Below, piece by piece: positions 3,877-37,200 of a stretch of 54,387 nucleotides of DNA; the first letter of the stretch is position 1, and each line of letters begins with the position of its first letter. Made by a program: the position numbers and the translations under genes. Below the pieces are notes generated by a model. The model worked only from the letters and a program-made list of their open reading frames with translations. It ran no database searches and was not told the origin of the DNA. This DNA is from a virus, in the IMG/VR virus record IMGVR_UViG_3300010273_000001, positions 1 to 54,387 of that record; one strand, written 5' to 3'.

Positions 3877-4474
3877 ACCCCAATTCCATTTTTGCTATGA
3901 AGATTAAAAATTCTTTGATTTTCTCAATCGGAACATTTAAAACATCCAACTCCACAAGAATTTTTTTGACTTCTGTTTGAACAGAAATCGGCATTTCTTT
4001 AATCATCATGACTATGTTCTCAATTTGCATAACATGAACCGTTGTCCAGTCCTCCGGAGTTTCGGAATTTTTAAGGACAACGAATTCAGTTCTGTCAACG
4101 CCTTTTTCTTCCAAAAAAGTGTCCAGCCATCGCGCAAAGGCAGTGTTTTTAAGTTTGTTTTGTTTTGCAAGCCATTTCTTGATTTTTTTAATGTCCTCAT
4201 CTTCGAGATCTACATTTTTGCTCCCGCGTGTTCTAACAAAAATGGCCGGCCCGACAATGTTTTGCGAATATTCACGAACATTGAAATTATGCGGAAGGTT
4301 AAGCAATTTGCCTTCCTCATTGATGATAATCGAAAGCCCTTCGTCGATAATATCGCTAAAGCAATATTCGATGTAACCGCCAACCAGATTACGATATGTT
4401 TCGTATCTGTCCTCAATCATTTCCTCCCGAAAATCTTCTCCGGGATTCTTAATCAAAACTCTAATTTTAGACAT
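3860..4474 (-). CDS. DUF3846-like protein
   Basis: SD GAAAGGAGAT precedes the ATG at 4474. The N-terminus (IRVLIKNPGE...VGGYIEY...IINEEGKLLNLPHN) resembles the DUF3846 pattern seen on Firmicutes mobile elements (from memory). Confidence 0.55.
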   Translation of the reverse strand: MSKIRVLIKNPGEDFREEMIEDRYETYRNLVGGYIEYCFSDIIDEGLSIIINEEGKLLNLPHNFNVREYSQNIVGPAIFVRTRGSKNVDLEDEDIKKIKKWLAKQNKLKNTAFARWLDTFLEEKGVDRTEFVVLKNSETPEDWTTVHVMQIENIVMMIKEMPISVQTEVKKILVELDVLNVPIEKIKEFLIFIAKMELGFDIFE

Positions 4475-4494
4475 TTTATCTCCTTTCTGGAGTA

Positions 4495-4554
4495 TTACTA
4501 ACTCCATGAAGCCTGCGAAGACAAGAAATCTTCGTAGACTTTAGCAATTAGTAA
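4495..4554 (-). promoter_or_regulatory. intercistronic structured element, copy A
   Basis: Outer arms TTACTAA/TTAGTAA and an inner 12-bp hairpin AAGTCTACGAAG/CTTCGCAGGCTT. Conserved loops are TTGCTAAAG and CATGGAG. It fills the gap between the stop at 4565 and the SD at 4479..4486. Confidence 0.65.
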
Positions 4555-4564
4555 TAACAACGAC

Positions 4565-5236
4565 TTAATCCATTAGCCTATAATCAGCCACTATATGTTC
4601 GCCATCATATAAATATATTTCTAATTCGTCCGGCTTGCAGCCGTAACAATCCGCTAAATATTTGCGTAATGTTTCGCCTTCTTGCCAGCGAATAGTATCG
4701 GGAACATAATATCCGTAACAATCGTCAATACAAAATTCCGTTCCACATCCTAACCAAAATTTGCCTATTTCGGTTATGTGTTCTTCGGAATAATGCGCCT
4801 TGCAATATACTACTTCGCAATAATCTCCTTGCGAATATCCTCTAAATGCTCTTACATTCCATTCTTCGCCGGTTGTAATGGTGAGAAATGCTGCGATATC
4901 TCTTGTATCGTAAGGATTTGCGTGTTCCGCCCATTCCTTCAATAAGTGGCACCTGCGGCTTGTATAATCAATGTTATGCGATAACATAGCTTCTTTATAT
5001 GTTGGATAATATTCGTTTTTTGGTGAAACTTCTTCAAATGTTTCGATCAAAGAATCAGCCATTTCTTCAATTTCTTCATACTCTTCCAAATTGAAACCGC
5101 TATACCTTCCTCTGTCCGCTGGTATAATATATACGGCACAATTCTCACCACCAACGCTTTTTAATCCATCATCGTCAAAATAATGCCTAAAATCTACATT
5201 TGACGGGTGAACTTCTTTGGCTATTATCTTTTTCAT
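4565..5236 (-). CDS. hypothetical acidic protein (223 aa)
   Basis: SD AAGGAGG upstream of the ATG; long ORF in the operon. Confidence 0.7.
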   Translation of the reverse strand: MKKIIAKEVHPSNVDFRHYFDDDGLKSVGGENCAVYIIPADRGRYSGFNLEEYEEIEEMADSLIETFEEVSPKNEYYPTYKEAMLSHNIDYTSRRCHLLKEWAEHANPYDTRDIAAFLTITTGEEWNVRAFRGYSQGDYCEVVYCKAHYSEEHITEIGKFWLGCGTEFCIDDCYGYYVPDTIRWQEGETLRKYLADCYGCKPDELEIYLYDGEHIVADYRLMD

Positions 5237-5256
5237 GTTTTAACCTCCTTTTTCTT

Positions 5257-5637
5257 TTAACTATATAACATTGATATTACGTCAATAACATTGTCCACAT
5301 CATAATAATCGTTATAATAATCACCCGATAAATAGATAGCATCGTTGGGGTTGCCATTTGGCGGATAGACCATAACAGTCCACCAGCAGCGGCCGTCAGG
5401 GTCAGCTTCGCCGGTTTCTTCATCTTCCAAAATTGCGTTCCGGGCTGTCCCAACACAGACAATGTTTTTGTCGTGGTACCTTGTCCACGAGTTTGCCTCA
5501 TGATCAAAAAATACATCCGCCCAGACCTCGCCAGTATCAATATCTAGCATAATGTCAAGTCTGGATTGTCCGCCATTCCCGATTAACTCAGTATCTAAAT
5601 TATTAAGCCTATCGGTTGCCAAAATCAGCTTTTTCAT
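5257..5637 (-). CDS. hypothetical acidic protein, paralog A of 6505..6885
   Basis: SD GAAAGGAGG. The 126-aa product is near-identical at both ends to 6505..6885 and divergent in the middle. Confidence 0.7.
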   Translation of the reverse strand: MKKLILATDRLNNLDTELIGNGGQSRLDIMLDIDTGEVWADVFFDHEANSWTRYHDKNIVCVGTARNAILEDEETGEADPDGRCWWTVMVYPPNGNPNDAIYLSGDYYNDYYDVDNVIDVISMLYS

Positions 5638-5652
5638 AATTTATCCTCCTTT

Positions 5653-5838
5653 CTATAACTTTTTAGCCTTTTTCTCTCTACGCTTTTCTAAACGATAGCA
5701 CCCGCCGCCATTCTCCATGTACTCTTTCAATCTTTGTTTTGCTTCTTTGTATGTGTACTCGCTGCATTCGCATTCCCAACCATAGCCGTAGTTACCCATA
5801 ATATCCCAACGGTCAATGGTTTTTCTGATGTACGCCAT
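5653..5838 (-). CDS. hypothetical small protein (61 aa)
   Basis: SD AAGGGAGG upstream of the ATG; WECEC motif. Confidence 0.6.
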   Translation of the reverse strand: MAYIRKTIDRWDIMGNYGYGWECECSEYTYKEAKQRLKEYMENGGGCYRLEKRREKKAKKL

Positions 5839-5865
5839 TTTATAAAACCTCCCTTAATTATATTC

Positions 5866-5911
5866 TTTTTATTATGCTTTTAGGCTGTCGGGCTTGTGAC
5901 CGTCTGCCTGG
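5866..5911 (-). repeat. 45-nt conserved element, copy 1 (partner 8362..8407)
   Basis: About 41/45 identity with copy 2. The core is GGCTGTCGGGCTTGTGACCGTCTGCC. The minus sense reads GTCACA-N18-CATAAT. Confidence 0.75.
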
Positions 5912-6059
5912 TTTTATACTCTTCTTCTGATATTTCCTCAACATCGACAATGTTTTTTACTCTCGCCTTGTTGATTGCTCCTTGTGCGTGATCATCCTTG
6001 ATGTACTTCGTGCCAATCCAATTGCGTGTTTTGTAATAGCTAATTTTCCAATATTTCAT
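5880..6059 (-). CDS. hypothetical small protein (59 aa; below the ORF-track cutoff)
   Basis: My translation gives MKYWKISYYKTRNW...RQTVTSPTA. SD CAGGAGG lies 8 nt before the ATG at 6059. It fills the gap between 6077 and 5838. Confidence 0.5.
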   Translation of the reverse strand: MKYWKISYYKTRNWIGTKYIKDDHAQGAINKARVKNIVDVEEISEEEYKTRQTVTSPTA

Positions 6060-6076
6060 AGTTACAACCTCCTGAA

Positions 6077-6388
6077 TTAGTCCAGATAATACCCGGCGTC
6101 AATCATGTCTGCTGTAGAAGGGAAATCCCAATCGCATTGATCGGCATAGTCTGCGTTGGAATCGACGTTCGGCAGGATGTCCCACGTCACGAACCAACGG
6201 TTACCATCACGATCCATCGCCAGAGCAGAAAACCAACCGGCGCCAACTGGCCCTTCCGGATAAGGATCTTCAGTCAATGCAAGCTCGACGTCACCCCATT
6301 CGTCATCATCCCATTCAACAGTGCCGAATCTTTCAGCAAATTCGTCGAACTTTTCCTGAACCGAATCATTAGCTTTAATTTGTTTCAT
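6077..6388 (-). CDS. strongly acidic small protein (103 aa; 26 D/E vs 6 K/R)
   Basis: SD AAAGGAGTG upstream of the ATG. Composition counted from the translation. Confidence 0.7.
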   Translation of the reverse strand: MKQIKANDSVQEKFDEFAERFGTVEWDDDEWGDVELALTEDPYPEGPVGAGWFSALAMDRDGNRWFVTWDILPNVDSNADYADQCDWDFPSTADMIDAGYYLD

Positions 6389-6416
6389 TTTTTCACTCCT
6401 TTTTTATTTTTTGTGA

Positions 6417-6471
6417 GTTATTAACTCCATGGAGCCTGCGACCAAAGTCGCAAGCTCTAGCAGTTAACAAC
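6417..6471 (-). promoter_or_regulatory. intercistronic structured element, copy B
   Basis: Outer arms (GTTG)TTAACT/AGTTAA(TAAC) and an inner 11-bp stem GAGCTTGCGAC/GTCGCAGGCTC with one G-U. Conserved CTGCTAG and CCATGGAG. Confidence 0.65.
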
Positions 6472-6504
6472 TTTTAACTGCCCAATAAAGATAGATTACC
6501 ATTC

Positions 6505-6885
6505 TTATTCCTCCATATATAACATTGATATTACGTCAATAACATTGTCTACATCATAATAATCATTATAATAATCTCCTGATAGATAGATATCATCGGC
6601 TGGGTTGTCGTTTGGCGCATAGATTGTAATGTTCCAATCGCAACCCTCGACTTCTTCCCCGGTTTCTTCATCTTCCATCTTGCTATTTCTGGCAGTGCCT
6701 ATGCAAATAATGTTTTTGTCTTCATACCTTGTCCATGAGTTGTCCTCGTGGTCAAAAAATTCATCCGCCCAGACCTCACCGGTTTCGATATCTAACATGA
6801 TATCCAGCCGGGAATTGCCGCCATTGCCGATAAGCTCAGTGTCTAAGCTGTTAAGCCTATCGGTTGCCAAAATCAGCTTTTTCAT
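6505..6885 (-). CDS. hypothetical acidic protein, paralog B of 5257..5637
   Basis: SD AAAGGAGG; see paralog A. Confidence 0.7.
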   Translation of the reverse strand: MKKLILATDRLNSLDTELIGNGGNSRLDIMLDIETGEVWADEFFDHEDNSWTRYEDKNIICIGTARNSKMEDEETGEEVEGCDWNITIYAPNDNPADDIYLSGDYYNDYYDVDNVIDVISMLYMEE

Positions 6886-6929
6886 AATTTATCCTCCTTT
6901 TGTTTTACAAATTTAAAAAATCATTTACA

Positions 6930-7373
6930 TTACATTAAACATTTTTCCTTCATGCTTAAATATCTTTGCTCACCAATAATTACGTGGTCTAGGATCCTAA
7001 TGCCCATTATTTCGCCAGCATCTACAAGCCGTTTTGTTGTCTCTATATCTTCCCGGCTCGGTTCAGGGTCACCTGAAGGGTGATTGTGCAGGCAGATAAT
7101 CCCGCTTGCATTATTAAGCATTGCAGCCTTGAATACCTCGCGCGGATGAACAATTGAAGCATTCAAACTGCCGATTGATATTGTATGTATTCCTACTATC
7201 TTGTTTTTGGTATTCAGACAAAGAATGCAGAAATGTTCCTCTGGCTTTTCGTGGAGTGCTAAAATCTGCTTTGCTGCCTGATAAACTTCTGCCGGCGACT
7301 TGATAACCGGAACTTCGTAAAGTGCGCTATCCTCTTTGACCATTTTTAAGGTGTAGAAATTAATCCTTGTCAT
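6930..7373 (-). CDS. radC: RadC-like JAB/MPN domain protein
   Basis: [14 protein letters not shown] metal-binding motif and DHVIIG, typical of the RadC family. Confidence 0.9.
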
Positions 7374-7409
7374 GCTTGATGAACTCCTTTCTTTTTTTAT
7401 TTTTTGTGA

Positions 7410-7470
7410 GCTGCTAACTCCAGCAAGCTGACGATCTCTATATCGATCGTCAACTTAAGCAATTAGCAAC
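7410..7470 (-). promoter_or_regulatory. intercistronic structured element, copy C
   Basis: Outer arms GTTGCTAA/TTAGCAGC (one G-U) and an inner stem AAGTTGACGATC/GATCGTCAGCTT. The upstream stop at 7471 abuts the 5' arm. Confidence 0.65.
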
Positions 7471-7716
7471 TTACATTTCGGCATCCACAGCGTCAAGCGC
7501 AGATGCTAACGCTGCATCATCTCCGGCATCTGCCAGAGATTTTAAAGCCGGCAACACGCGGGCGAGATACTTTTCGCGCCCTATTGCTTGCCCTTTGCCA
7601 CCCCAAACAAGTGCGCCTCTAGATACCGCATCCAGGCGGTTTGCGTTCTGGTTGCAAATGATTTCATACTTTTTCTCGAGCTCTGCTAGTCGTCTGGCAT
7701 TTGCAAAACTTATCAT
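7471..7716 (-). CDS. hypothetical protein (81 aa)
   Basis: SD AAAGGAGGG precedes the internal ATG at 7716 (MISFANARR...). Visibly more GC-rich than its neighbours. Confidence 0.55.
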   Translation of the reverse strand: MISFANARRLAELEKKYEIICNQNANRLDAVSRGALVWGGKGQAIGREKYLARVLPALKSLADAGDDAALASALDAVDAEM

Positions 7717-7735
7717 ATTTACCCTCCTTTCTGAA

Positions 7736-7784
7736 GTTATTAACTCCATCAAGCCCGCTGAACGGGCTTTGTGCAATTAACAAC
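7736..7784 (-). promoter_or_regulatory. intercistronic structured element, copy D
   Basis: Outer arms GTTGTTAA/TTAATAAC (one G-U) and an inner stem AAGCCCG/CGGGCTT. Conserved TTGCAC and GATGGAG. Confidence 0.65.
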
Positions 7785-7795
7785 TAACAGCTTAT

Positions 7796-8092
7796 TTACT
7801 TCATTTCGGGATAATCGTCAATCGGATTATAAATGGTGTCGTATCCGTTCATTTCGGGAATTTGGAGCTTCCCAATGTACTCGCAAGCATCTTTTACACT
7901 TTGCTTATCAGCTCCGTCTCTGATTGCCAATAAACCGCCATAAATAATGGTTGATATAATTTTCTTTTCCGGCTCAGTGGTTTTTCTCCTATAATCGCTA
8001 CTATTTCCATTTTTGTCATAGCTCCGGATTACTATTGATTCGGCTTTCATTTCGGCGTATGCTTTTAATTCTTGTTCTGTTGGTCTAAACAT
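7796..8092 (-). CDS. hypothetical protein (98 aa)
   Basis: SD TAGGAGG upstream of the ATG. Confidence 0.6.
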   Translation of the reverse strand: MFRPTEQELKAYAEMKAESIVIRSYDKNGNSSDYRRKTTEPEKKIISTIIYGGLLAIRDGADKQSVKDACEYIGKLQIPEMNGYDTIYNPIDDYPEMK

Positions 8093-8120
8093 TGTGTAAC
8101 CTCCTAAATTTTATTATACT

Positions 8121-8345
8121 TTACAGCTTTTTCACTAAATCCACACCATACACAACACCAAGGCTTGAACCTCTATCCCAAGTACAGAATATCGTACCCG
8201 CATCATCCACGAAGTCCACTGTACCTTTGTCTCCGGGTCTCAATTTGGAGTACGGGTCATTCATCCATACCAATTCAACACGAGTTCCAACCGGGTATTC
8301 ATTTCGGAGTCTCTCTACAGTCTCCTTTGAAGGGAACTTTTTCAT
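8121..8345 (-). CDS. DUF4314-like small protein (74 aa)
   Basis: SD AGGAGGTG precedes the internal ATG at 8345. The ...GDKGTVDFVDDAGTIFCTWDRGSSLGVVYGVD pattern recalls DUF4314 (from memory). Confidence 0.55.
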   Translation of the reverse strand: MKKFPSKETVERLRNEYPVGTRVELVWMNDPYSKLRPGDKGTVDFVDDAGTIFCTWDRGSSLGVVYGVDLVKKL

Positions 8346-8361
8346 AATATCACCTCCTAAA

Positions 8362-8407
8362 ATTTTATTATGCGTTCGGGCTGTCGGGCTTGTGACCGTC
8401 TGCCCGG
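8362..8407 (-). repeat. 45-nt conserved element, copy 2 (partner 5866..5911)
   Basis: Same core sequence, here entirely non-coding between the stop at 8419 and the SD of 8121..8345. Confidence 0.75.
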
Positions 8408-8418
8408 CTGCATTTCTG

Positions 8419-8811
8419 CTATTTTTCAATGGCTTTTAATATTGCGGCGTTTGTTTCTTCATCCGCTTGATTATTCCAGTTATCGTGGAATTCGTCTACA
8501 CCCTCCATCATTTCGTATAAAACCTCTTCGCCTATAATGTAGTAAAGCATATTGACGAGTTTTTCTGGATCGCTCAAATCGGTGTAAATTTCGCCAAAAT
8601 TCTCTTTTTCGTATGTCTGCACTTTTTCAATTGCTTCGAACACATCATATTCTTTCAGGGCTTCTTTGGCTTGATGGATGCCGATAATATAATAATCGGT
8701 ATTAAAAACTTCGTTATGCAAGTCGCAATAGTACCCAGAATAACCATTTTTTAACGCTTCGATTATAGCGTCTCTTGCTTCTTCTCTCATTTCTTGTTCT
8801 TTTTTATTCAT
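8419..8811 (-). CDS. hypothetical protein (130 aa)
   Basis: SD GAGGAGG upstream. The ATG overlaps the stop of the upstream small ORF (ATGA). Confidence 0.65.
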   Translation of the reverse strand: MNKKEQEMREEARDAIIEALKNGYSGYYCDLHNEVFNTDYYIIGIHQAKEALKEYDVFEAIEKVQTYEKENFGEIYTDLSDPEKLVNMLYYIIGEEVLYEMMEGVDEFHDNWNNQADEETNAAILKAIEK

Positions 8812-8981
8812 TTTGCTACCTCCTCATTGATTAATTTTTTAATGCCTTTTTGAGTGTCTGCCATTAGGCGTCCTTTGCTGGTATACGTGCTATACATGCC
8901 GCTGTGTCTGTCCCTTTCAATAAAATGACCTTTATACATATAATATTTGTTTAGGTTATCAGGTCTTGTTATGTTTTTCAT
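8808..8981 (-). CDS. hypothetical small protein (57 aa; below the ORF-track cutoff)
   Basis: My translation gives MKNITRPDNLNKYYMYKGHF...INEEVAK. SD AAGGGAGG lies 8 nt before the ATG at 8981. ATGA overlap with the next gene. Confidence 0.45.
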   Translation of the reverse strand: MKNITRPDNLNKYYMYKGHFIERDRHSGMYSTYTSKGRLMADTQKGIKKLINEEVAK

Positions 8982-9026
8982 TGTTTTTTACCTCCCTTTG
9001 TTTAAACATTTTTTATGCCCACTCCA

Positions 9027-9221
9027 TTAAATAATCCTTCCTCTTATTACTTGAAAATATTTAACATCCTTTTTGTAATCTATGTCTGGATGTTTTTCCT
9101 TGAACAATTTGATGGCATGTTCTTGATTGCGGGCTTGAATGCAATCAGTTTTGTTTACATTTCCAAAAGTAGACACTAAAAATCTGCGACATCTTACGAA
9201 TTTCAAAATCTCTCCCCCCAT
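9027..9221 (-). CDS. hypothetical small protein (59-64 aa)
   Basis: The ATG at 9221 lacks an SD. An alternative TTG at 9206 follows GGGGGAGAG and overlaps the upstream stop (TTGA). Confidence 0.45.
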   Translation of the reverse strand: MGGEILKFVRCRRFLVSTFGNVNKTDCIQARNQEHAIKLFKEKHPDIDYKKDVKYFQVIRGRII

Positions 9222-9781
9222 ACATGTTTGAATTCTTTCAGATTGAAAACATCTTTTAAGCTTTTTTCTAAATGGGCAAGCCCGTAAAAATCACCAAAAA
9301 TGTCAACGAATGTTTCGATTTTTTGTTTGCAACACTCACATGTTGTTATCTCAGTGAGTTTGCAGTAATAAACTTCCCCTTTTAGGTAAGCGTTGTAAAC
9401 ATCCAATTCTTCCTTAAGAATCTCCATAGCTTTTTCTTCCCAATTATTTTCTTTAGCACCCAGATTATTAATTATGGAGTTTTTAAAAGCAACTGCAACC
9501 CCAACTTTCCGGCATCCCCTTTTGTGTGCTCTGTAAGTTTTCAAAGCCGTGCCGGAATGTTGAAACAAATCAACCACAAGTGTTTCTTCTTCTTCATAGT
9601 CTTTTAATTCTTCTAAACTTCCAAATTCCCTTTCATCCCCGAGTTTTAAACGCGGCTGGCAAAACAATGTCCAATAATTATCAAAAATTTCACGCGGGTT
9701 TTCTGCGCTTTTTACCCGATAAATCGAAAGTCTCTGCGTCGGGACTCCCGACTTTTCATAAACTGAAAACAACTTTTCCAT
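9203..9781 (-). CDS. hypothetical protein (192 aa)
   Basis: SD GAAAGGAGAA upstream of the ATG; CECC cysteine cluster. Confidence 0.65.
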   Translation of the reverse strand: MEKLFSVYEKSGVPTQRLSIYRVKSAENPREIFDNYWTLFCQPRLKLGDEREFGSLEELKDYEEEETLVVDLFQHSGTALKTYRAHKRGCRKVGVAVAFKNSIINNLGAKENNWEEKAMEILKEELDVYNAYLKGEVYYCKLTEITTCECCKQKIETFVDIFGDFYGLAHLEKSLKDVFNLKEFKHVWGERF

Positions 9782-9865
9782 AAATTCTCCTTTCTCGCTC
9801 TGCCTTTTTCATCCCGGCTTGCGACGGGCAATGGCGGCATTAAGAAAGGACTGCGTCCTTTCGGC

Positions 9866-10096
9866 TTATATTATACGTTTACAGTTTCGGCGAATGTAGT
9901 CTATAAATTCGGCGGGTTCCATTTCGCATAATTTCTGCGAATATACTTGCAAGCCGTACACTTCATCTAGCGCATACTTAGCGGCAAATCGTTGTGCTGT
10001 TTCTCTGCGCTTATATTCTGATTTGTAGCGTGTTATAAGCGTTCCGTCGTTGCCGCAAGGATGAACGCCTTTTTTAATGCCTATTAGATAATACAT
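9866..10096 (-). CDS. hypothetical protein (76 aa)
   Basis: SD AAGGAGG upstream of the ATG. Confidence 0.6.
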   Translation of the reverse strand: MYYLIGIKKGVHPCGNDGTLITRYKSEYKRRETAQRFAAKYALDEVYGLQVYSQKLCEMEPAEFIDYIRRNCKRII

Positions 10097-10099
10097 AGG

Positions 10100-10327
10100 T
10101 TAAACCTCCTTGTTATCAGTTATTATTCCATGATAAACCGTTACCCAGAATTCAGGATCCAATTTCAAGTAATCTTGCAGAATTTCTTCTCTTGTTTTGT
10201 CTAAATCATATACTTGATATTTTAGATCAGTTTTCATGCATAAAGATATCATGTCCCAATCGCAGATGACTTCGCCAATTTTAATGTCGTTAAAGACTAA
10301 ATCACATTTAATAACCTTTTTATTCAT
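10100..10327 (-). CDS. hypothetical protein (75 aa)
   Basis: ATGA start/stop overlap with 10324..10518. Confidence 0.6.
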   Translation of the reverse strand: MNKKVIKCDLVFNDIKIGEVICDWDMISLCMKTDLKYQVYDLDKTREEILQDYLKLDPEFWVTVYHGIITDNKEV

Positions 10328-10518
10328 AGTTTCACCGCCTTTTTAAAATCTGGTTTTTCGCCTAACTGGAAAACACTCTCTCTTAATCTATGGTAGCCTT
10401 TTTCATCTAGTAACTTTTTTAATACTTCAATGTTGAGTTTTTCATCAGATTCAGCAACCAACTCCTCATCCCATAAAGGATGCCCTTTTTTGACAGCCCA
10501 ATATAAATAGATTACCAT
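10324..10518 (-). CDS. hypothetical protein (64 aa)
   Basis: SD GAAGGAGGAA upstream of the ATG. Confidence 0.6.
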   Translation of the reverse strand: MVIYLYWAVKKGHPLWDEELVAESDEKLNIEVLKKLLDEKGYHRLRESVFQLGEKPDFKKAVKL

Positions 10519-10539
10519 TCCTATTCCTCCTTCTGAATT

Positions 10540-10773
10540 TCATTTTGCTAGTCTAAATGTGTAGCCCCATGTTCCGCTCTGTCCAATTTCCCCGCCGAAA
10601 AACACATGCACTTCTTCCGGGAAAAATTCAGTCTGAAAATATCTTCTGATGATTTCTTCAGCCTCTTTGGGATCGCAGGTCGCTCCGAGAGAACGACCAC
10701 TTCCCGTCTTTATGACTGCTCCGTGCGCGAAATCGCAGAAGCAGTCAAGGTTTGTAATTTTTTCGATCATCAT
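10540..10773 (-). CDS. hypothetical protein (77 aa)
   Basis: SD GAAAGGAGAA immediately 3' of element copy E. Confidence 0.6.
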   Translation of the reverse strand: MMIEKITNLDCFCDFAHGAVIKTGSGRSLGATCDPKEAEEIIRRYFQTEFFPEEVHVFFGGEIGQSGTWGYTFRLAK

Positions 10774-10795
10774 TTTTTAATTCTCCTTTCTGGAG

Positions 10796-10853
10796 CATTA
10801 CTAACTCCATGAAGCCTGCGAAAATTCTTCGCAGACTTTAGCAATTAGTAATG
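10796..10853 (-). promoter_or_regulatory. intercistronic structured element, copy E
   Basis: Perfect 9-bp outer arms CATTACTAA/TTAGTAATG and an inner stem AAGTCTGCG/CGCAGGCTT (one G-U). The upstream stop codon TAA (10845..10847) is part of the 5' arm. Confidence 0.7.
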
Positions 10854-11057
10854 ATTGATTAATTCCCTTTTGCCTTCTCTTTCCCATTCCGCTTTTTCTG
10901 CCAGAAATCTGTCGATTTCCGCGTTTTGCCTTTCAGCACCCCTAATCTTCCCTATAATCTCCATGTTCCTTCTCACATTCGTAAATGGGTTGCTGTAAAG
11001 AACACCGTTCACTTCTACAGAAAAATAGCCTTGATTAAAGTATTTTGATTTTCCCAT
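10845..11057 (-). CDS. hypothetical protein (70 aa), first gene after the AT-rich hub
   Basis: SD AAGGGAGAA upstream of the ATG. Confidence 0.6.
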   Translation of the reverse strand: MGKSKYFNQGYFSVEVNGVLYSNPFTNVRRNMEIIGKIRGAERQNAEIDRFLAEKAEWEREGKRELINHY

Positions 11058-11197
11058 CAGTTATTCTCCCTTCTTTTAGCGCTTCGCTATTTTTTTTCAC
11101 CTTGATTATACTATATAGAGTTCGTTTTCGCTTGTTTTTTTTCTTTTTTTATATTCGTATGCATCGTTGCACGGCCTGTTTACCGTAATAATACCTT

Positions 11198-11214
11198 GGC
11201 GTTTTTAAGACTTT
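11198..11214. repeat. 17-nt direct repeat GGCGTTTTTAAGACTTT, copy 1
   Basis: Perfect match to 11459..11475. Confidence 0.9.
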
Positions 11215-11308
11215 AATGGCCAAAAAATTAAGATGAAAAAAGAATTTAAAAATTCAAAAAGATTTAAAATAATTTCTCAAAATTTACTTTTTTGTCTTAT
11301 AACTTCCG

Positions 11309-11324
11309 AAATGTTGTAATATTT
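11309..11324. repeat. 16-nt inverted repeat, left arm (AAATGTTGTAATATTT)
   Basis: Perfect reverse complement of 11442..11457; the arms are 117 nt apart. Confidence 0.9.
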
Positions 11325-11441
11325 AGTGTAATAACCATAGAATGAATTTTTTTTTGAAGATAAAATATATATGGTGAGGTGTGTGTGTTAGGAAAAATAA
11401 AATGTGATAAAAAAAATATTCTATATATAGGAAATTACATC

Positions 11442-11457
11442 AAATATTACAACATTT
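11442..11457. repeat. 16-nt inverted repeat, right arm
   Basis: Reverse complement of 11309..11324; abuts direct-repeat copy 2. Confidence 0.9.
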
Positions 11458-11458
11458 G

Positions 11459-11475
11459 GGCGTTTTTAAGACTTT
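11459..11475. repeat. 17-nt direct repeat GGCGTTTTTAAGACTTT, copy 2
   Basis: Perfect match to 11198..11214. Confidence 0.9.
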
Positions 11476-11524
11476 TTTTAAGATTTTTCAAAATTTTTTA
11501 AAACTTTTTAAAACTTTTTAAAAT
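11471..11524. repeat. 10-bp phased A/T tracts (AAAACTTTTT-like units, about 5 copies)
   Basis: The sequence reads acttttttta|agatttttca|aaatttttta|aaacttttta|aaacttttta in exact 10-bp register. Confidence 0.85.
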
Positions 11525-11584
11525 AATGGCTTTTGCGTGCTTTGTGGCTACTTTTAAGACGCTTTTGTATCAACATGTATACGT

Positions 11585-11610
11585 AAAAAAAAGACCCGAG
11601 ATGGGTCTTT
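11585..11610 (-). terminator. intrinsic terminator after 11613..11954
   Basis: The minus sense reads AAAGACCC-AUCUC-GGGUCUUU followed by a U7 run, 3 nt after the stop codon. Confidence 0.75.
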
Positions 11611-11612
11611 GG

Positions 11613-11954
11613 TCAGATCTGGGCAAAACCACGACATCCAATGATCCGTCCATCTTTGTCCCGAACGCTGTCGTTTACGACCAAGAGGTCAGATCGCTTC
11701 CCAGCCGCCGCCTGCGCCACCAGAGCGCTTACGACATAGAAAACCCCGGGCAGTGGGTCAGGAAGTCCAGTAATTTCACCGTAGAAGTTCTTTGAGATGG
11801 GAAAACCATCAATTTCCCCGATTACTTCAGAACGGACAGCGACCCGAGCAATACCGCTAGACTTTATCTTTTCGGCGAGCTCATCCCCGCGGTATAGATG
11901 GATTTCATGAGGTGTCAAGTTAACAATCACTTTTTCAACAATCACTTTTTCCAT
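11613..11954 (-). CDS. hypothetical protein (113 aa)
   Basis: SD GAAAGGAGA precedes the internal ATG at 11954 (MEKVIVEKVIVNLTPHEI...). Visibly higher G+C than the rest of the arm. Confidence 0.6.
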   Translation of the reverse strand: MEKVIVEKVIVNLTPHEIHLYRGDELAEKIKSSGIARVAVRSEVIGEIDGFPISKNFYGEITGLPDPLPGVFYVVSALVAQAAAGKRSDLLVVNDSVRDKDGRIIGCRGFAQI

Positions 11955-11966
11955 TCTCCTTTCCGA

Positions 11967-12029
11967 AGTCTGCTGACTCCAAAAAACCCACAACCGCATG
12001 CGGTTGTGGGCTCTAGCAATCAGCAGACT
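11967..12029 (-). promoter_or_regulatory. intercistronic structured element, copy F (inner hairpin is terminator-like)
   Basis: 10-bp outer arms AGTCTGCTGA/TCAGCAGACT. The inner hairpin CCCACAACCGC/GCGGTTGTGGG is followed by T6. The upstream stop TAG overlaps the 5' arm. Confidence 0.65.
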
Positions 12030-12450
12030 AGTCTAGGTAGAGGTCGCACAGTTTGCTGACTTCTGCAAGGATTGTTTCCTTAGTGATGGTCGGATTCATG
12101 AGTTTTTTGATTTCCGCGTTGATAAACCGGATCGCCGCCAGATCTGTTTCGTCCAGATCCGCTTTGTCAAAAAGTCGTTTCTTTTCCTTTTCTAGCTCTT
12201 CCAGCGCGTCTTTGTCCACCTGCTTGAAGTAGTCAACCAGCCGCAGGAAGTCGGCTTTCAGCCGTTCTTCTTTTGAGCGCATGGTGCGGCTGCTTTCGGT
12301 GCGTTCCACCACCTCCCATCCCGCTGCTGCCAGATCTCTTAAACAAGCGGCGGTGTTTTTGCCAGTGCCGCTGTAGCCAGTCAACACCCTAATGGCTTCA
12401 TTAGGGGAATTAAAGGTTCTGACTTGTTCGCCATTCTTAAGTTTGATCAT
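12028..12450 (-). CDS. hypothetical protein (140 aa), first leftward gene
   Basis: SD GAAAGGAGG lies 7 nt before the ATG. Confidence 0.65.
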   Translation of the reverse strand: MIKLKNGEQVRTFNSPNEAIRVLTGYSGTGKNTAACLRDLAAAGWEVVERTESSRTMRSKEERLKADFLRLVDYFKQVDKDALEELEKEKKRLFDKADLDETDLAAIRFINAEIKKLMNPTITKETILAEVSKLCDLYLD

Positions 12451-12804: not shown

Positions 12805-13188
12805 ATGGCAAATTTAGAAGCATATGAGAAGGTAGTTCAGAATTTAAAGATAGTGAAGGCAATGAAGAGTGCGGGGCAAACGGATCGGGAGATAGCGGAG
12901 CGTATAGGGATAACGGTAAAGGAATTGCTAGAGGTTATAGGGTCGGACAATTATTTAAAGGAGATATATGAGAGGGCGCAAGAGAAGGTAGTAGCGGGGA
13001 TAGAGAGCAAGTTTATAGAAGTAATGGAAGAGAAATTAGAGGAAGGGGATACGAGGGATGCGAAGTGGTATTTAGAGAGGGTATCGCCGAAGTATCAGAA
13101 GAAGGACAATGTGATGGTAAGTGTAAAGAGCATTGATGAGGTAATAAGGAATCGAGGGGGTTTAAGTGCCGAAGGAGAAGATGTTTGA
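12805..13188 (+). CDS. terS: terminase small subunit (candidate; HTH protein)
   Basis: Helix-turn-helix-like TDREIAERIGITVKELLEV. Lies immediately upstream of and overlapping terL. SD GAGGCAGGTGAG. Confidence 0.55.
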   Translation: MANLEAYEKVVQNLKIVKAMKSAGQTDREIAERIGITVKELLEVIGSDNYLKEIYERAQEKVVAGIESKFIEVMEEKLEEGDTRDAKWYLERVSPKYQKKDNVMVSVKSIDEVIRNRGGLSAEGEDV

Positions 13189-14965
13189 AGGGATTGATTA
13201 TGAGAGGACGATATTCAATCCGCGATGGTTCATGGAGAATTTACTTTACATAGTAGACAAGGCGGGGCGGACGATACCGTTCAAGTTCAACCGGGAACAA
13301 AGGCGTCTGATGGAGCATATAGAATTTTGTTTAGCGAACGACATACCGATAAGGATAATTTTATTAAAGGCGCGGCAAATAGGGGCGACGACATTTTTCA
13401 CGGGATTAGGTTTTTGGTGGGCGGCGATGAATCGGAACACCAATTATGGGATAGTAGCGCATCGATTGGATTCGGCGCAGAGCATATTCGACAAGACGAA
13501 GATGTTTTATAATTTTTTACCGAGGGAATTACGGCCGTCGACGATTCAATTTTCGAGCGAGGCGATCAAGTTTGACAAGAAAGACGGGACGGGAATAAAC
13601 TCGATGATACAATTCGCGACGGCGGGAGAGGGGGTATTTCGGGGGCAGACCTTGAGATATTTACACAAATCGGAGAGTGCGTTTTGGGACGGGGATATTG
13701 ATTTAATCAACAGCTCATTAGCGCCTACTGTTCCTGATGTGCCGGGGACGATAATAGTGAACGAATCGACGGCGAACGGGTATAATCATTTCAAGGAAGA
13801 ATGGGACAGGGCGGTGCGAGGGGAGAGTGGATATACGCCGTTTTTCTTTGGATGGCAAGATCATGAGGAATATCGATTGGAGGTTCCGTATGGTTTTGAA
13901 CTGACGGAAGAAGAGACGAGGCTGAAGGAGAGGTTCAATCTAACGGACGAGCAGATTGCTTGGCGGCGGAAGAAAATATCGGATGATTACCATGGGAACG
14001 AGTTATATTTTCAGCAGGAATATCCGATGACTCCGGAAGAGGCGTTTCTCGCTAGTGGGGCGGGGGTATTTGACGCTAAGACAATCAAGGCGGGATATGA
14101 GTCGAGCAAAGAGCCGAAGTTAAAGAAAGAGATCAAGAGTTATATAACGCCGGAGAAACTGTTGATATGGGAAGAGCCGCAAGAGATGGTAGAAGAAATA
14201 CGGTCGAAGAAGGCGGTATGGTCGGTCGAGAAACAAGCGTATGAGTATGAGGAAACGGATTTGGTGCTTGAGACAATCAAGAAGAAAGTGCCGTATACAA
14301 TCGGGATAGATACAGCGGGATTAGGCAAGGATTGGAATCAGATTGTGGTGATTAACAATTTGACGAAGAAATATGCGGCGCGATTTGGGCAGAAGGACAT
14401 ACCGGAGGATGCGCTTGCGGATATAGCGATAGAGATAGCGGAATATTACAATAATGCAATGATAGCGCCGGAGACTAACTTTTCGAAGGAGATATGCAAT
14501 TATATTTTAAAGCCGAAGTTTGACGAAAACGGGGAGAAGATAAGAGACGGGTATAAAAACGTATATATGACGGAGAACTTGGCGAAAACGAAAAAAATCA
14601 GCGTCGGGGGGGGCGTGGAATACGGTTGGAAAACAACGGGGAGCACGAAAGCCCCGATGATTTCGGCATTAAGGGCGCTTTTGAAGGAACATCCGGAACT
14701 TATTGAAGATAGGGAATTTTGGTATCAAGCGGAATATTTTTTGATAACGGACATTGCGAAGAACAAGATGGAGGCGGCGGGCGGACATTTTGACGATATA
14801 ATAATAGCGGCGGCGATAGCGCATTATGTATCGTGCAGTTTTCAAGCGCCGCAAACGCCGATAATATTCAAGGAGGAGAAAGCGCAAAAAAGCGGTTGGA
14901 TAAACGGGATATACATACCAAAGAAAAAAAAGTTGAGAAAGGGGATTTATAAGAATCATGCGTAA
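13166..14965 (+). CDS. terL: terminase large subunit
   Basis: Walker-A-like LKARQIGATT, followed by VNESTANGYNHF and the nuclease-region GIDTAGLGKDW. GTG start with SD GAGGGGG. Confidence 0.9.
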   Translation: MPKEKMFEGIDYERTIFNPRWFMENLLYIVDKAGRTIPFKFNREQRRLMEHIEFCLANDIPIRIILLKARQIGATTFFTGLGFWWAAMNRNTNYGIVAHRLDSAQSIFDKTKMFYNFLPRELRPSTIQFSSEAIKFDKKDGTGINSMIQFATAGEGVFRGQTLRYLHKSESAFWDGDIDLINSSLAPTVPDVPGTIIVNESTANGYNHFKEEWDRAVRGESGYTPFFFGWQDHEEYRLEVPYGFELTEEETRLKERFNLTDEQIAWRRKKISDDYHGNELYFQQEYPMTPEEAFLASGAGVFDAKTIKAGYESSKEPKLKKEIKSYITPEKLLIWEEPQEMVEEIRSKKAVWSVEKQAYEYEETDLVLETIKKKVPYTIGIDTAGLGKDWNQIVVINNLTKKYAARFGQKDIPEDALADIAIEIAEYYNNAMIAPETNFSKEICNYILKPKFDENGEKIRDGYKNVYMTENLAKTKKISVGGGVEYGWKTTGSTKAPMISALRALLKEHPELIEDREFWYQAEYFLITDIAKNKMEAAGGHFDDIIIAAAIAHYVSCSFQAPQTPIIFKEEKAQKSGWINGIYIPKKKKLRKGIYKNHA

Positions 14966-31258: not shown

Positions 31259-34200
31259 ATGAATATTAAGTATGTCGGCTTAAAACCAGAAGAAGCACTT
31301 CTTAAAATTCAGAGCGATGCCGTTCAAGCAATAAGGGAAAAAGTCGAGGCTTATAGGAACAATGTCGACAAACTTCTTGCCGCCTACGAACCGCCTGAGG
31401 TTGATAGTTTTTGGGGAGCGATGGCTATTGCGCCTGCTACTCTTTATAGTCTAATTAAAAGTGGTTTGGATAGTTTAGTCGATTTCGGAGCTTCTTTTGC
31501 TTATGTCATCGAAAATGCGATTAACGATGCAATGCATATCTTCGATTCATCGGACGGAACGGATTGGCGGACGGATACCAAATATTTTTTTGGTAATTTA
31601 GGGCTTTCACTCCATGAAGCAATTAGCACTTCGCTTGTTTCTACAGGGGCTAATCTTGGACGGGTTATCGGCATTGATCCTAAATGGGCTTACGGGGAAC
31701 AGGGATTAATTCCGAAGATGGCTCGGCAGTATAACCTTTCTCGTTCCCAATTGCTTGCTTCTCCGGATAAAATCAGCATATTTAAGCCATATCAACCTGT
31801 TGAAGATTTAATGTCGAGCCAATGGGAAGAGTATAGGAAATATCTTGATTTTGCTGAGGGGAGAACTCCGGAACAAATTATCGAAGATCGCTATTACGAA
31901 GACATAAGAAATGCTATTGTTCAAACCGGCGAATTTCAGAATTGGGTCTCGCGTAATTTCGTGGAACCGATTGCAAATACTCTTACTTTGGGCACTAAAA
32001 AGTATGCCGATAGATATTACAAAGATAGCGAATTTTATAACTTCCTTATGGGGGCTGCTGAAAGTGCGGGGCGCATTCTTGCTTCTTGGGCGGTTGCTAA
32101 GATCGGTGCAAAAGCCGGAGTTAATCCTCAAACGTTGAGTTCGGCTTACTTTGCCGCGTCCATTTTTGCGGACAGTTTTGAGGAAGCTTTGAAAAACGGT
32201 GCTACTATGCAAGATGCCTATACTTACGCGGTAGGAACAGCTTTTCTTGAAACGGCGATCGAGAATTTTGGCGGTCGGACAACGAGCGGCGTAAAAAAAG
32301 CGGCAAAAAGAAGTCTGTTCGAAAAAGTCCTAGGAGAGAAATGGGGAAATATTGTCCAGCAGGCTGTCGAAGAAGGTCTTGAGGAAATTGGCTCGGAGGT
32401 TGCCGGAACAGGTCTTTCTTATTACGGGAGCGGTGAAAGACAAGTTGATTCCGCCGAAAGCTTCCGGGAATTCGCAAACAGAATAATGTTTTCGTTTTTA
32501 AGCGGCTCTATTACTTCGATGGGTCTTGGAATTGGGCATGATATGTATATTGACACAACCGCTATCGGTAAATCCCGACGCGTTCTTACCGATATAAGTA
32601 AACAAGTGACTTCTGAAAATTCCAATAAAGTTTATAGCCGTTTTCAAAAAGACCTTGAAAACTTTGTTGCGTATATAAATCGTCCGGATGCTAAAGGTCT
32701 GAAAACAACCACAAAAATCGTGGCGCCTTCCGGGGATGTTATCGGGCCAGCCGATGTAGGAGACGTCAAAAAAAAGGAAGTCTCGCAGTATGTAGGCGTC
32801 TTAACTCCGGAAGAAAAGAGCCGGTATATCCGTCAGATTGGGTTAGCAAATGTTATTGAAGAAGTTGACGGTAAATTCCAAATAAGAGAAAAAGCGCGGG
32901 AAATGGGCGATAAAATTTTTGCCGTTCGGGTTGGAGATAATGTCGTAAACAGAGCCGATTATGCAATCAATGACGCCGTTTGGGGTGTTGATATTAGCGA
33001 TGATGGCACAACCGAGGTTGTCAAAATGGCTAATCTTAATGAACGGGGCAAAAAGATACTTGATATCGCTCAAAAACGCAACATACCAATCGCTATTATT
33101 GACGAAGCGCCGAGAGGGAAGAACGATCTGGGGATTTCCGGATTTTATTCGGCAGATAACGGAATTATTTATATAAATCAAAATCCGAATGTTGATATGA
33201 CAGATGAAGAAATCGAATCGGTAATTATAAAGCACGAATTAGTCCATCATATCGCTAGCAAAAATCCGGAATTGTTTGAAAAATTAAAGAAAATGGTTAA
33301 TAAATTCGTTGATTTTGAAGTCGATGGGGAAGGCAAAAAGATTGATGTTACCTATAAGAATAAAAAAGTAGGTGAAATTCTCGAGAAAAAAGGTTTTTCG
33401 GATCATGTTTTGAAATCGTTCCTGGATTATTTTGAGGGATTAAAGGATATGAATTTTGCCGTAAAACAAGCGCAAGAAGAAGTTGTTGCTTATTTTGTCG
33501 AGGATATGCTCGAAGGCGGCGATTTTTTAGAGATTATCTCCAAAAAAGATGAGAAGCTGTTCGAAGAATTAAAAAACGAGACTACTGATGCTATTGATAT
33601 GGCTGTAGGCGAAGATAAAAAACTTGCCCGGAAGCTGAAGAAAATCCGAAAGAAGTTTGAGACTATTGCCGAAAAGACTTTGGCTCAAAAGAGGACGCTT
33701 CAGTCCTATATTGATCATTTCCTTGGCTCGGGATATGTTCTCGAAGATATGTTCAATAAAGAATTGCTTGAGAAATACGACGCTGAATATCTTTGGGATA
33801 TGTTATGGGAGACGTACGAAAAAGATCCTCAAGCAAGAGAAATCAAGATTGACGGCAAAGTTTATCCGCTTTCGCAAGTCTTGGCGCGGACTGCTAATGT
33901 CAAGCCAAAACGGCTTGCCCGTCCGGATTGGGATAGAATATATTCCGAGTTTAAGTATGACGCGCAAGAAAAGACTTTATATCTGAAACTTCTGCGAAAA
34001 TTTATTAATGAGAACAAATATGTGCAGGATGAAGAAATTCGGGAAATAGTTGGAGATGCTGAATGGGCGGTTGATAAAATTAGAGACGGGGGCGAATTGC
34101 GCGAATCCGAATATGAGATTCTCCGGCAATTAGTTACAGATTATAAATTTAGCGAAGCGGAAAAGAAATGGAGAGAAGAAAACGAAAAGGTTCTTGAAAC

Positions 34201-37200
34201 TACTAAATTCCGCGTACTGAAGAATTTAATCGCCCGAGTTGTCCGTTTCATGAACGATCCACAGAAATCTGGAATTACCGGTTGGCGTAATAGAAGTCAC
34301 ATTATGAGATATAATGCGGCTTATTTAGCGCTGGATAAATCGGCAAGGAAAGAAGGCGAAAGCGTCGAAGCTTTCGCAAAAAGAATTCAGATGATTACTT
34401 CGTTGAGTTTAGAGCCGTATTTCCCCGAGCAATTCAATGTCACTTATTATATCCCGGATAAAGCCGATTATATCGAATTCTTGATTAAACCGACGAGAGA
34501 ATTCTTGGAAGAAGAAACAAGAAAAGCGGAAGAAGCTGAAATCAAAAAACAAGAGACCACGGAAGTTGAGGGGCTAATGCCGGCAAAACCGCCTGTCAAA
34601 ACAACGAAGGAAGATTCTATAAATGCTCTTGAAGAAATCGGGGTTACTCTTGAAGGGAAAAAAGTTATCACTCTTGATGACAATATAACCTTGGAAAAAC
34701 TAGAAGAGATAAAATATGACGACAATAATATCGTTGTCGGGAATCCTCCGTTTGCCGAGAATAAGAACGCTGAATATTTAAAGAAAGCTCTTGAAATCGC
34801 GCCGGTTGTTGCGATTGTTTTGCCGCGTCCGTGGGCTAAATCCTATATGTTACAGAAAGAGATCCCGGGAGATAAGAAACTAATTTATAACGAGCTTATT
34901 CCGCTGAAATCTCTTAAAACTAGCTCGGGCAATCGGCAGATGAAAACGGTCGTTCAAATTTGGGTTGATTCCAAAAACAAAGAATTTGAAGATTTCGAAA
35001 ATATCCGGGCATTCTTTCAACCAAAAATGGCGCATCCTGATTTTTCCACATTTACTTTGACCGGCGAAAGACGCAAGTATGAGGATGCGAAATATTTCAA
35101 TTTTGATTTGGCAGTTGTTAGGGAAAGCAATACGGCTAAATTCAGTGAGATAATTACGAAGTATGAGGATTTGAAACCTAAAGGCCATTATCTTTTGATT
35201 AAAGCTAACAATCCGGAAGCGTTACAGATTTTTTCTATGATTGACTTCGAAGCGCTTGCCGACAAAGGCTCGACAATACAGAGGGGATTTACTACCTATG
35301 ATTTGATTGAAGAATATGAACGTATCAAGAAGGAGGTAAAATCCATTAAGACGCCTATGAAACGGCTTGCCGACGACACGAAACTCACGGACAAGGAACG
35401 GAAGTATTTAGGTGAGATTGCCGAGTATTTTACGAAAGATAAGTCTGGAAAATTCGTTATTAAATCCGAATATATCGTGAGGCAAAAACCGGCAAAACAA
35501 GCGGTTAAGATCAACGGCGTTGTTTATTCCTCGGACGAATATGCGGTTCATACCACCGTAGATTTGTCGAGCGTAAACGCGGAACTTAAATTGAAGCGGA
35601 GCGAATTTGAAAGACCTCTAAAACTTTCGGAACTTTCCGAAAAAGAACAGGTTTGGTTTGATTTTTTCCGAGCTTCGAATATGAACTTCGTTTTATATCG
35701 AGCCCCCCAAAATGCTTCTATTTTAGGATTTGAATATCCTTCGGAAGAATCTTATGTCGTTTATATCAATACGGAATATCTGTATCATAATTTTGATAAT
35801 TTTCATAAATTTCTTACCGGGACTTTCGTTCATGAACACGTGCATGAATTAAATAAAAGAAACAAGGCGAGAGCATTTAAGTTTGCCGCTGAACTTGCTA
35901 ATATTTTATTCGAAGTCAAAGACGGCGAAATTGTCCAGAGCGATATATTTAAAAAGATTGAAGAAACACGCTATAAAGACTTTGGTTCTTTTCTCCGTTA
36001 TATGAAAAACTCTTATTGGTATTTAAATAGCGGAAATAGTTTCTCATCTTATAAAGATCTTTATAATGCTTTAATTAAAGGAGATAATGGTGACCGTTTG
36101 CATTATCGGGTTGTAGATGAAGTTGTCGCTCAGATATGCGGCGTTCTATTCTCGGATTATGAGGTTTACAAGACTGTATTCCAAGGCAAAGCGGAAAACA
36201 TCTTACCTTTCCATCAACTCTATACGAAAATTCTTGATGATCCGAATATTCCGATAATGGTAAAAGAACAGATACGCAAAGCCGTTTTTGCTCTTGAAGA
36301 TGCTTATAAGGAATTTCTGGCTGATCTTAAAAAGAAATTTCCGCCTGAGGCCATCTATAAACTGCGCGATCTCAATAAATTTATTCGGTCGTTTACGAAT
36401 AACCGTTTCCGTTCAAGAAATGATCTTATCCAGCGATATTTGGAAGAAAGAGCGAATCATAAGCACGGTTTGGCGCATATGGCGGTCGATAACATAATTT
36501 ATATCGCTTCGTTGTTTGCGGAGCAGACGCAAAAGGGCTATGAATTCTATCAAAATATGAAAGAAGAATTCGAAGGTTTCCGAAAAAATATCGAGTTTCT
36601 TCTCAATAGCGAAGATGATTTGACGGTTCTTCAAAAAGGCGAGATTCGCCAACTGGTGAATCTTTTGATTAAGCAAAATATCTCCGAAGAAGGATTCATA
36701 TTGAGTGAGGGCGGGCTGGATCTCGTTGATAGAATTTTGGAATTTGCGGAAGAATACGAAATGATTCCGGAAGAATTGCTAAAAATTTTTGGCTTGCCTA
36801 CCCATAAGGAAATTATAAGCGTTGCCGCAGAACTCCAGAGAAATCAAGCCGAGGGAAATGCAACAGCTTTTCAAGTCAATTTCAGGGAATTCAAATCGCT
36901 TTTGAAGAAGATAAAACAGGTTTTGACGAGCGAGACCGATGATATTTTTAGGAAGATAGCCGATTTAAAAATCGCTTATCGCGAAAAAGAAATGGATTTG
37001 TTTATAACAAAACTTAAAAATCATTATGCCGCTTCCAAAAAGAAAATAACTTCCGTGAAACTTCAGTCCGAATCTCCGTTCAAAGAAACTCTTGCGGAAG
37101 TTATGACCTTAATTGCCGGCGGTAGGATTAACGGGGTAGATATTCCCGGAATCATTCAAGTGGTTCAAAATAACAAATATAATCTCAAGCAATTAAGAGC

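Follow-up and report, generated by a model that had tools for sequence, protein, structure and literature searches.

What is the function of six similar RNA-like elements that recur between the small early genes of an uncultivated phage? The question is raised by IMGVR_UViG_3300010273_000001, of which the whole 54,387-nucleotide stretch (hereafter the window) was analysed, and in which six copies of a stem, a conserved box and a hairpin, lettered A to F, occupy gaps between genes of the early operon. The elements are probably ribonuclease III (RNase III) processing signals of the type found in phages SP82 and SPO1, placed within the polycistronic early mRNA. The family is assigned to this known one because the sites annotated in GenBank record AF031901, which covers the SPO1 host-takeover module, carry the same layout and loop, and because models built from either set of sequences match the other.

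Structure and setting of the six elements

Element coordinates were drawn with outer stems of 9 base pairs (bp), and the sequence was read on the minus strand of positions 4300-12200. Two covariance models are referred to throughout. R1 consists of the six window copies and one copy from a near-identical phage, whereas R2 consists of 17 distinct SPO1-like (Okubovirus) sites only. The outer stem is termed P1 and the inner hairpin P2, and R2 reports are those at an E value of 1 or below.

4493..4556, minus strand: element A, P1 UAUUACUAA/UUAGUAAUA, loops UUGCUA and CAUGGAG; R1 75.9 bits, R2 16.9 bits
6416..6472, minus strand: element E, P1 AGUUGUUAA/UUAAUAACU, loops CUGCUA and CAUGGAG; R1 69.5 bits, R2 25.4 bits (E value 3e-4)
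7409..7471, minus strand: element C, P1 AGUUGCUAA/UUAGCAGCU, loops UUGCUU and GCUGGAG; R1 72.4 bits, no R2 report
7735..7785, minus strand: element D, P1 AGUUGUUAA/UUAAUAACU, short P2, 5' loop UUGCACA (7 nucleotides) and 3' loop GAUGGAG; R1 50 bits, no R2 report
10796..10853, minus strand: element B, P1 CAUUACUAA/UUAGUAAUG, loops UUGCUA and CAUGGAG; R1 76.5 bits, R2 22.3 bits
11967..12029, minus strand: element F, P1 AGUCUGCUGA/UCAGCAGACU, loops UUGCUA and UUUGGAG; R1 71.6 bits, R2 27.5 bits (E value 9e-5)

A preliminary description of the sequence had placed six copies here in minus sense, with a shared layout and with outer arms that differ between copies but stay complementary, and all of this is borne out on reading the minus strand. 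Each copy runs from P1 (9-10 bp) through the loop (U/C)UGC(U/A)N(N), a variable P2 hairpin (7-14 bp) and the loop NNUGGAG to the returning arm, P1'. All six window copies have UGGAG. In the 5' loop, A, B and F share UUGCUA, whereas C has UUGCUU, E has CUGCUA and D has UUGCACA.

Both helices covary strongly, as had been claimed. In a model-fitted alignment of 12 copies, 96.3% of helix cells are paired, compared with 28-47% after a shift of the 3' partners by 1-3 columns, and double-sided changes are seen in 14 of 21 pairs; the fitting to the structure inflates these pairing figures somewhat, although the margin over the controls is large. The construction of a covariance model had been proposed as a check, and the 17 SPO1-like sites covary as well, the proportion of paired cells being 89.6%, or 35-51% after such a shift, and 13 of 17 pairs having changed on both sides. 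The 12-copy alignment also contains 17 G-U cells, which are A-C mismatches on the opposite strand, and with R1 the window copies reach 50-76 bits in sense and 25-32 bits in antisense; the structure thus belongs to the mRNA-sense transcript.

The conserved segment had been described as an internal loop. Its conservation holds, but it is not a loop proper: the first two positions pair (U-G, or C-G in E, and then U-A), a constant G-G mismatch follows, and then a C-G pair, and the 'internal loop' is therefore a near-helix around the mismatch. A recurrent U-G pair, said to occupy the same position in A, B, C and E, does so in A, B and C, whereas in E it lies one pair further in. Similarly, the inner hairpins always pair, as stated, but their sequences are not unrelated throughout, since those of A and B, and in part that of E, resemble each other. 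In 3.45 Mb of phage loci, a structure descriptor picked out only family members and two marginal matches, and it retrieved no copies from the same loci after mononucleotide shuffling.

Several other identities were considered and rejected. No Rfam model matched any part of an element, at the gathering score or at E values up to 10, and the known ribozyme classes (twister, twister-sister, pistol, hatchet, hammerhead, HDV and hairpin) were set aside on this ground; a pistol variant would also lack its 5' hairpin and pseudoknot partner. Integron attC sites, which carry the cores RYYYAAC and then GTTRRRY with an integron integrase close by, do not fit: the arms GTTGTTAA...TTAATAAC stand in the opposite order, or read TTACTAA...TTAGTAA, and no integrase was found in Pfam scans of the window. 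A structural switch, in which P1 would alternate with another hairpin, GGAGU...ACUYC, and so free or hide the Shine-Dalgarno sequence, is not a family feature because this other hairpin is missing from C, E, the copies in a 108 kb contig described below and the SPO1 sites, and a pseudoknot of the same two segments is sterically impossible because no linker spans the 9-bp P1. The GA/AG pattern required for K-turn and loop-E motifs is not constant. As for intrinsic termination, which requires a GC-rich hairpin followed by a U tract, only F qualifies, with its GC-rich P2 and subsequent U run; the other five copies have no U tract, and termination was rejected as the identity of the family.

The elements are intercistronic and lie in mRNA sense on the minus strand, beginning 0-13 nucleotides past a stop codon and ending 6-27 nucleotides ahead of a strong Shine-Dalgarno sequence. 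In B, C, E and F the stop codon overlaps the 5' arm of P1 or sits within it, and in B the final three nucleotides of this arm are the UAA stop codon of the upstream open reading frame (ORF). Each early-operon gap of at least 70 nucleotides is filled by one of the six elements, by a twister-like element or by a twister-like remnant (gap 8348-8419). Further copies were sought on either strand of the window by a loose regular expression and two structure-descriptor scans, and none was found.

The genome that carries the elements is that of a phage of about 54 kb, with a large terminase gene (13166-14965), a head-protein-like gene, a VapE-type primase gene and several methylase genes. Its leftward early operon is made up of small genes, including those for RadC, DUF3846 and DUF4314. 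Element A has a gene for a 223-amino-acid protein (stop at 4565) upstream and the DUF3846 gene on the other side, and the RadC gene follows C. No RNase gene and no RNA-binding gene was detected when the window was scanned with Pfam and PHROG, and a phage-encoded RNase was dismissed on that basis. Element E follows a 12-codon truncated duplicate (MVIYLYWAVKSC, then a stop) of the start of ORF 10324-10518, located at 6462-6500 on the minus strand, and the stop codon of this duplicate forms the end of the 5' arm of P1. Two paralogous genes of 126 amino acids lie nearby (5257-5637 and 6505-6885). The truncated duplicate and the paralogues point to recombination at the elements.

Elsewhere in the window, an AT-rich non-coding stretch of 0.5 kb (11060-11600) lies upstream of the main early operon and contains phased TTTTAAAAAG-type repeats at 11470-11560; a closely similar tract with an 11-nucleotide period is present in SPO1 (L310 11333-11496). 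At the end of the structural block, a 3069-amino-acid ORF (31259-40468, plus strand) has no Pfam or PHROG match.

RNase III sites of SPO1-like phages and the range of the motif

The SPO1 host-takeover module was examined because RNase III sites have been characterised in the related phage SP82. A repeat scan first exposed the SPO1 elements, which were then matched to the annotation of AF031901, where three features, RS-A, RS-B and RS-C, are each labelled 'RNAse III site'. On the gene strand these sites read P1 / UUGCUA / P2 / (C)AUGGAG / P1'. In SP82G, RS-A and RS-B are identical to those of SPO1, RS-C is a variant and additional copies are present, and five other Okubovirus phages have three or four copies each. 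Adastra, Goe16 and SP82G have loop variants, CUGCUA and ACUGGAG, that resemble those of the window. The earliest characterisation of the family, in SP82, dates from 1983 (Panganiban and Whiteley, as cited in PMC4838370), and neither the SPO1 nor the SP82G sites are matched by an Rfam family. The preliminary description had not recognised the sequence family, which is a known one.

SPO1 and SP82G hold more copies of the motif than the three annotated (L341 906-960; L342 19982-20036 and 18674-18728, both minus strand). The first of these shares part of its length with the annotated terminator TL2.7 (L341 902-925), immediately past gene 58, while the two extra SP82G copies in L342 are in oppositely transcribed early genes.

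An unfiltered search of both strands of the whole window with R2 yielded F, E, B and A, in descending order of score, and nothing else; four of the six elements are therefore recognised by a model trained only on accepted SPO1-like members. R2 also reports copies in two near-identical phages (L003 and L309) and in the 108 kb contig (L323). In the reverse search, the top matches of R1 in SPO1, SP82G, SP8 and Goe16 are the RS sites, at 15-22 bits. Like the SP82/SPO1 sites, the window elements have two covarying helices around an asymmetric 6/7-nucleotide internal loop, with the conserved sequences 5'-UUGCUA and 5'-(C)AUGGAG, and are found in several copies per genome on the sense strand of early operons, in positions that are intercistronic or within 5' untranslated regions. 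The two sets also differ. P1 is 9-10 bp and AT-rich in the window but 5-8 bp and often mismatched in the SP82/SPO1 sites; P2 is closed by AAG/CUU in the former and by GU(A/G) in the latter; and the window elements share their operon with a twister-like ribozyme, whereas SPO1 and SP82G lack one. The window phage is unrelated to the phages that carry the SP82/SPO1 sites, and none of 50,697 phage records matches it at the nucleotide level.

The preliminary description had likened the elements to the early RNase III sites of T7 (R0.3, R0.5, R1.1 and others). The comparison with RNase III sites is supported by the AF031901 features and the reciprocal model matches, but the closest precedent is SP82/SPO1 rather than T7. 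The T7 sites are likewise multiple intercistronic hairpins in which an internal loop separates the upper stem from the lower one, although the enzyme belongs to a different host (Escherichia coli). A single cut on the 3' side leaves a 3' hairpin on the upstream T7 mRNA, an outcome also predicted for the window elements. The T7 loop sequences differ from those in the window, and the RNase III of Bacillus subtilis has other substrate requirements. The T7 'bubble' rule is summarised in PMC1935012.

The motif is rare. Near-identical phages (L002, L003 and L309) carry copies, and an unrelated AT-rich IMG/VR contig of 108 kb (L187/L323) has five, four of them in consecutive intercistronic gaps. Three copies in this contig have an NNUGGAA 3' loop, and in two of its copies P2 is followed by a U run. 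All related copies but one retain UGGA(G/A), at a fixed distance from the Shine-Dalgarno sequence, and the UUGC/UGGAR box is, on the sequences compared, nearly invariant across the window phage, the 108 kb contig and the SPO1-like lineages. No R1 copies were found in about 2.1 Mb of loci around related terminases, in a relative of 63% identity or in RadC-homologue loci, and a BLAST search of the region against phages and plasmids gave no match. A search of Rfam and viral metagenomes had also been proposed; Rfam gave no match, and in two exact-pattern scans of IMG/VR, L003 and one 108 kb contig were, among the matches listed, the only genuine ones amid many due to chance. A descriptor scan of 1.3 Mb of genome-bin loci gave one marginal candidate (L409 8326-8381, plus strand; UUGCAU / P2 / CUGGAA), in an Oscillospiraceae bin. 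The closest terminase relatives in genome bins are in Lachnospiraceae and Tenericutes bins, and the rest are mostly in those of other Bacillota.

The copies resembling B in L003 (331-410, minus strand) and L309 (830-908, plus strand) have a tandem duplicate of the 5' arm (CATTACTAAT..CATTACTAATTGC), and the genes downstream of B-type copies differ among the window, L003 and L309.

These features, together with the terminator-like form of F, the U runs after P2 in two copies of the 108 kb contig and the truncated gene duplicate that E abuts, speak for a reading in which the hairpins are passive, acting as barriers to 3' exonucleases, as weak terminators or mainly as cassettes by which early genes are shuffled in recombination, comparable to the promoter-early stem-loop (PeSL) cassettes of T4, and are not specifically cleaved. 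This is nevertheless quite improbable: five of the six copies have no U tract, a nearly invariant 13-nucleotide box in unrelated phages would be left unexplained, and a role in recombination is compatible with RNase III function and would be secondary to it. The T4-type cassettes do resemble the window elements as repeated regulatory stem-loops between small early genes at gene-shuffling junctions. Each T4 cassette couples a stem-loop with an early promoter, and its part in recombination is played at the DNA level. The window elements, by contrast, have a conserved RNA structure with G-U pairs and no promoter.

The strict conservation of the box invites a different suggestion, namely that what binds or cuts it is not RNase III but, for example, an endoribonuclease specific for GGAG like RegB of T4, a GGA-binding translational repressor like CsrA, or a phage-encoded regulator; a CsrA-like protein would bridge the GGA of the loop and that of the Shine-Dalgarno sequence about 22 nucleotides downstream. 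UGGAG is invariant in the six window copies, UGGA(G/A) with its fixed spacing is kept in all related copies but one, and this degree of conservation exceeds what recognition of double-stranded RNA alone would need. Even so, such a factor is unlikely, as no RNA-binding or nuclease gene co-occurs across the window phage, the 108 kb contig and the SPO1-like phages, GGAG lies inside a long helix and not in an apical loop, and the SPO1 annotation names RNase III.

Assignment of the window elements to the SP82/SPO1 type has points that weigh against it. Elements C and D are not reported by the SPO1-only model, the scores between families are modest (17-27 bits), and one diverged copy in the 108 kb contig (L323 9921-9972) is without UGGAR. 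The link from the mapped SP82 sites to the motif runs through the SPO1 GenBank annotation and the sequence identity of SP82G, and cleavage in the window phage is predicted by homology, as are the bond that would be cut there and any consequences for stability and translation. In addition, the presence of the motif in unrelated phages could represent convergence on a factor other than RNase III.

Self-cleaving ribozymes in equivalent intercistronic slots

Some gaps of the same and of homologous early operons are occupied by ribozymes:

9792..9846, minus strand, in the window: twister-P1-like ribozyme, not a member of the family, between ORFs 9866-10096 and 9203-9781
L182 10675-10745, L184 10684-10754, L182 9729-9799 and L323 14125-14196: pistol ribozymes
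L182 9267-9327, L184 9899-9961, L312 4148-4202, L320 7376-7435 and L320 7727-7780: twister-P5 ribozymes
L180 2532-2603 and L320 5815-5886: twister-sister ribozymes
L317 4603-4668: hammerhead II ribozyme

The twister-like element of the window scores 48.2 bits against RF03160 (E value 1e-7), which is under the gathering score of 67.2; its core nucleotides align and one hairpin of the model is missing. Two weak twister-P5-like matches (22-24 bits) lie in the same operon, at 8384-8420 and 5888-5943 on the minus strand, and are two copies of a repeat of about 45 nucleotides (GGCAGACGGUCACAAGCCCGACAGCC) that resembles the 3' half of twister-P5; the copy at 5888-5943 sits inside the 3' end of ORF 5880-6059. 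These repeats may be ribozyme remnants.

Directly after the stop codon of the homologue of the 223-amino-acid protein, where the window has element A, L182 and L184 have a pistol ribozyme. Related early operons, in loci gathered around homologues of this protein and of RadC, abound in ribozymes of the pistol, twister-P5, twister-sister and hammerhead II classes, every one of them located between cistrons and in sense orientation, and in the 108 kb phage a pistol ribozyme lies about 330 nucleotides past one of the element copies. That ribozymes stand in equivalent slots suggests that the slot serves for cutting RNA. Gene neighbourhoods of this kind have yielded new ribozyme classes, for which the processing of polycistronic transcripts has been proposed as a role (PMC5737381, PMC6765202). 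The related loci also hold two group I introns (L185 8667-8944 and L314 249-970) and one skipping-rope RNA (L182 2563-2642, minus strand).

It could accordingly be asked whether the elements are themselves a new class of small self-cleaving ribozyme that cuts between cistrons without protein. They share the operon of a twister-like element, pistol, twister-P5, twister-sister and hammerhead II ribozymes stand in homologous operons, some in the same slot, their loop nucleotides are conserved while their helices covary, and searches near such genes are those that gave new classes (PMC6765202, PMC5737381). This reading is nonetheless highly improbable. The SPO1 annotation marks the same motif as a site of cleavage by a protein, RNase III; what is conserved forms an almost unbroken helix with a G-G mismatch in it, and there is no multi-helix junction, pseudoknot or conserved terminal loop; and no Rfam ribozyme model matched even at E values up to 10. 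Phage-associated ribozymes and the window elements are of similar size, occupy the same intercistronic slots of homologous RadC/DUF3846/DUF4314 early operons and presumably have a common outcome, a cut between cistrons. They differ in that the window elements match no ribozyme model, have no junction or pseudoknot and would be expected to need a protein enzyme for cutting.

Proposed processing of the early transcript and its implications

If the elements are SP82/SPO1-type RNase III signals, the transcribed segment would fold into an irregular helix of 25-35 bp, comprising P1, the near-helical box 5'-UUGCUA / 5'-NNUGGAG with its G-G mismatch, and P2, which would be bound by the double-strand-specific RNase III of the host. 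According to PMC1935012, which cites Mitra and Bechhofer 1994, the SP82 targets have internal loops and receive a single cut from the B. subtilis enzyme, on the stem's downstream side, and the conserved box may similarly act as the determinant of specificity and reactivity that limits cutting to one site on the downstream (3') side. A conserved sequence box fits the narrow specificity ascribed to the B. subtilis enzyme (PMC4838370). The upstream cistron would then be left with a terminal P2 hairpin as a barrier to 3' exonucleases. The downstream cistron would begin a few nucleotides before a strong Shine-Dalgarno sequence, and binding of ribosomes may protect the new 5' end, as in the 5' stabiliser of SP82, which depends on a ribosome-binding site (cited in PMC7509114 and PMC11805744).

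The element type itself has been known since 1983, in SPO1-like Bacillus phages only and without an Rfam model. What is new is the motif outside SPO1-like phages, in the window phage of about 54 kb and the AT-rich 108 kb contig, the near-invariance of the UUGC/UGGAR box across these lineages, and the sharing of slots with self-cleaving ribozymes. The family can now be modelled and annotated. The 13-nucleotide box is probably a general recognition signature for the RNase III of Bacillota, which would make processing sites predictable in phage and host transcripts.

A broader proposal, held tentatively and judged slightly more likely to fail than to hold, is that SP82/SPO1-type sites and self-cleaving ribozymes (twister, pistol, twister-sister and hammerhead) are interchangeable 'cut here' modules between the early cistrons of Bacillota phages. 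Phage-associated ribozymes would, in that case, exist to process polycistronic early mRNA, and 5'-UUGC / 5'-UGGAR with its G-G mismatch would be the sequence determinant behind the narrow specificity of Bacillota RNase III. The purpose of bacterial self-cleaving ribozymes is a question raised in PMC6765202, and the sharing of slots makes it testable by swapping the one kind of element for the other.

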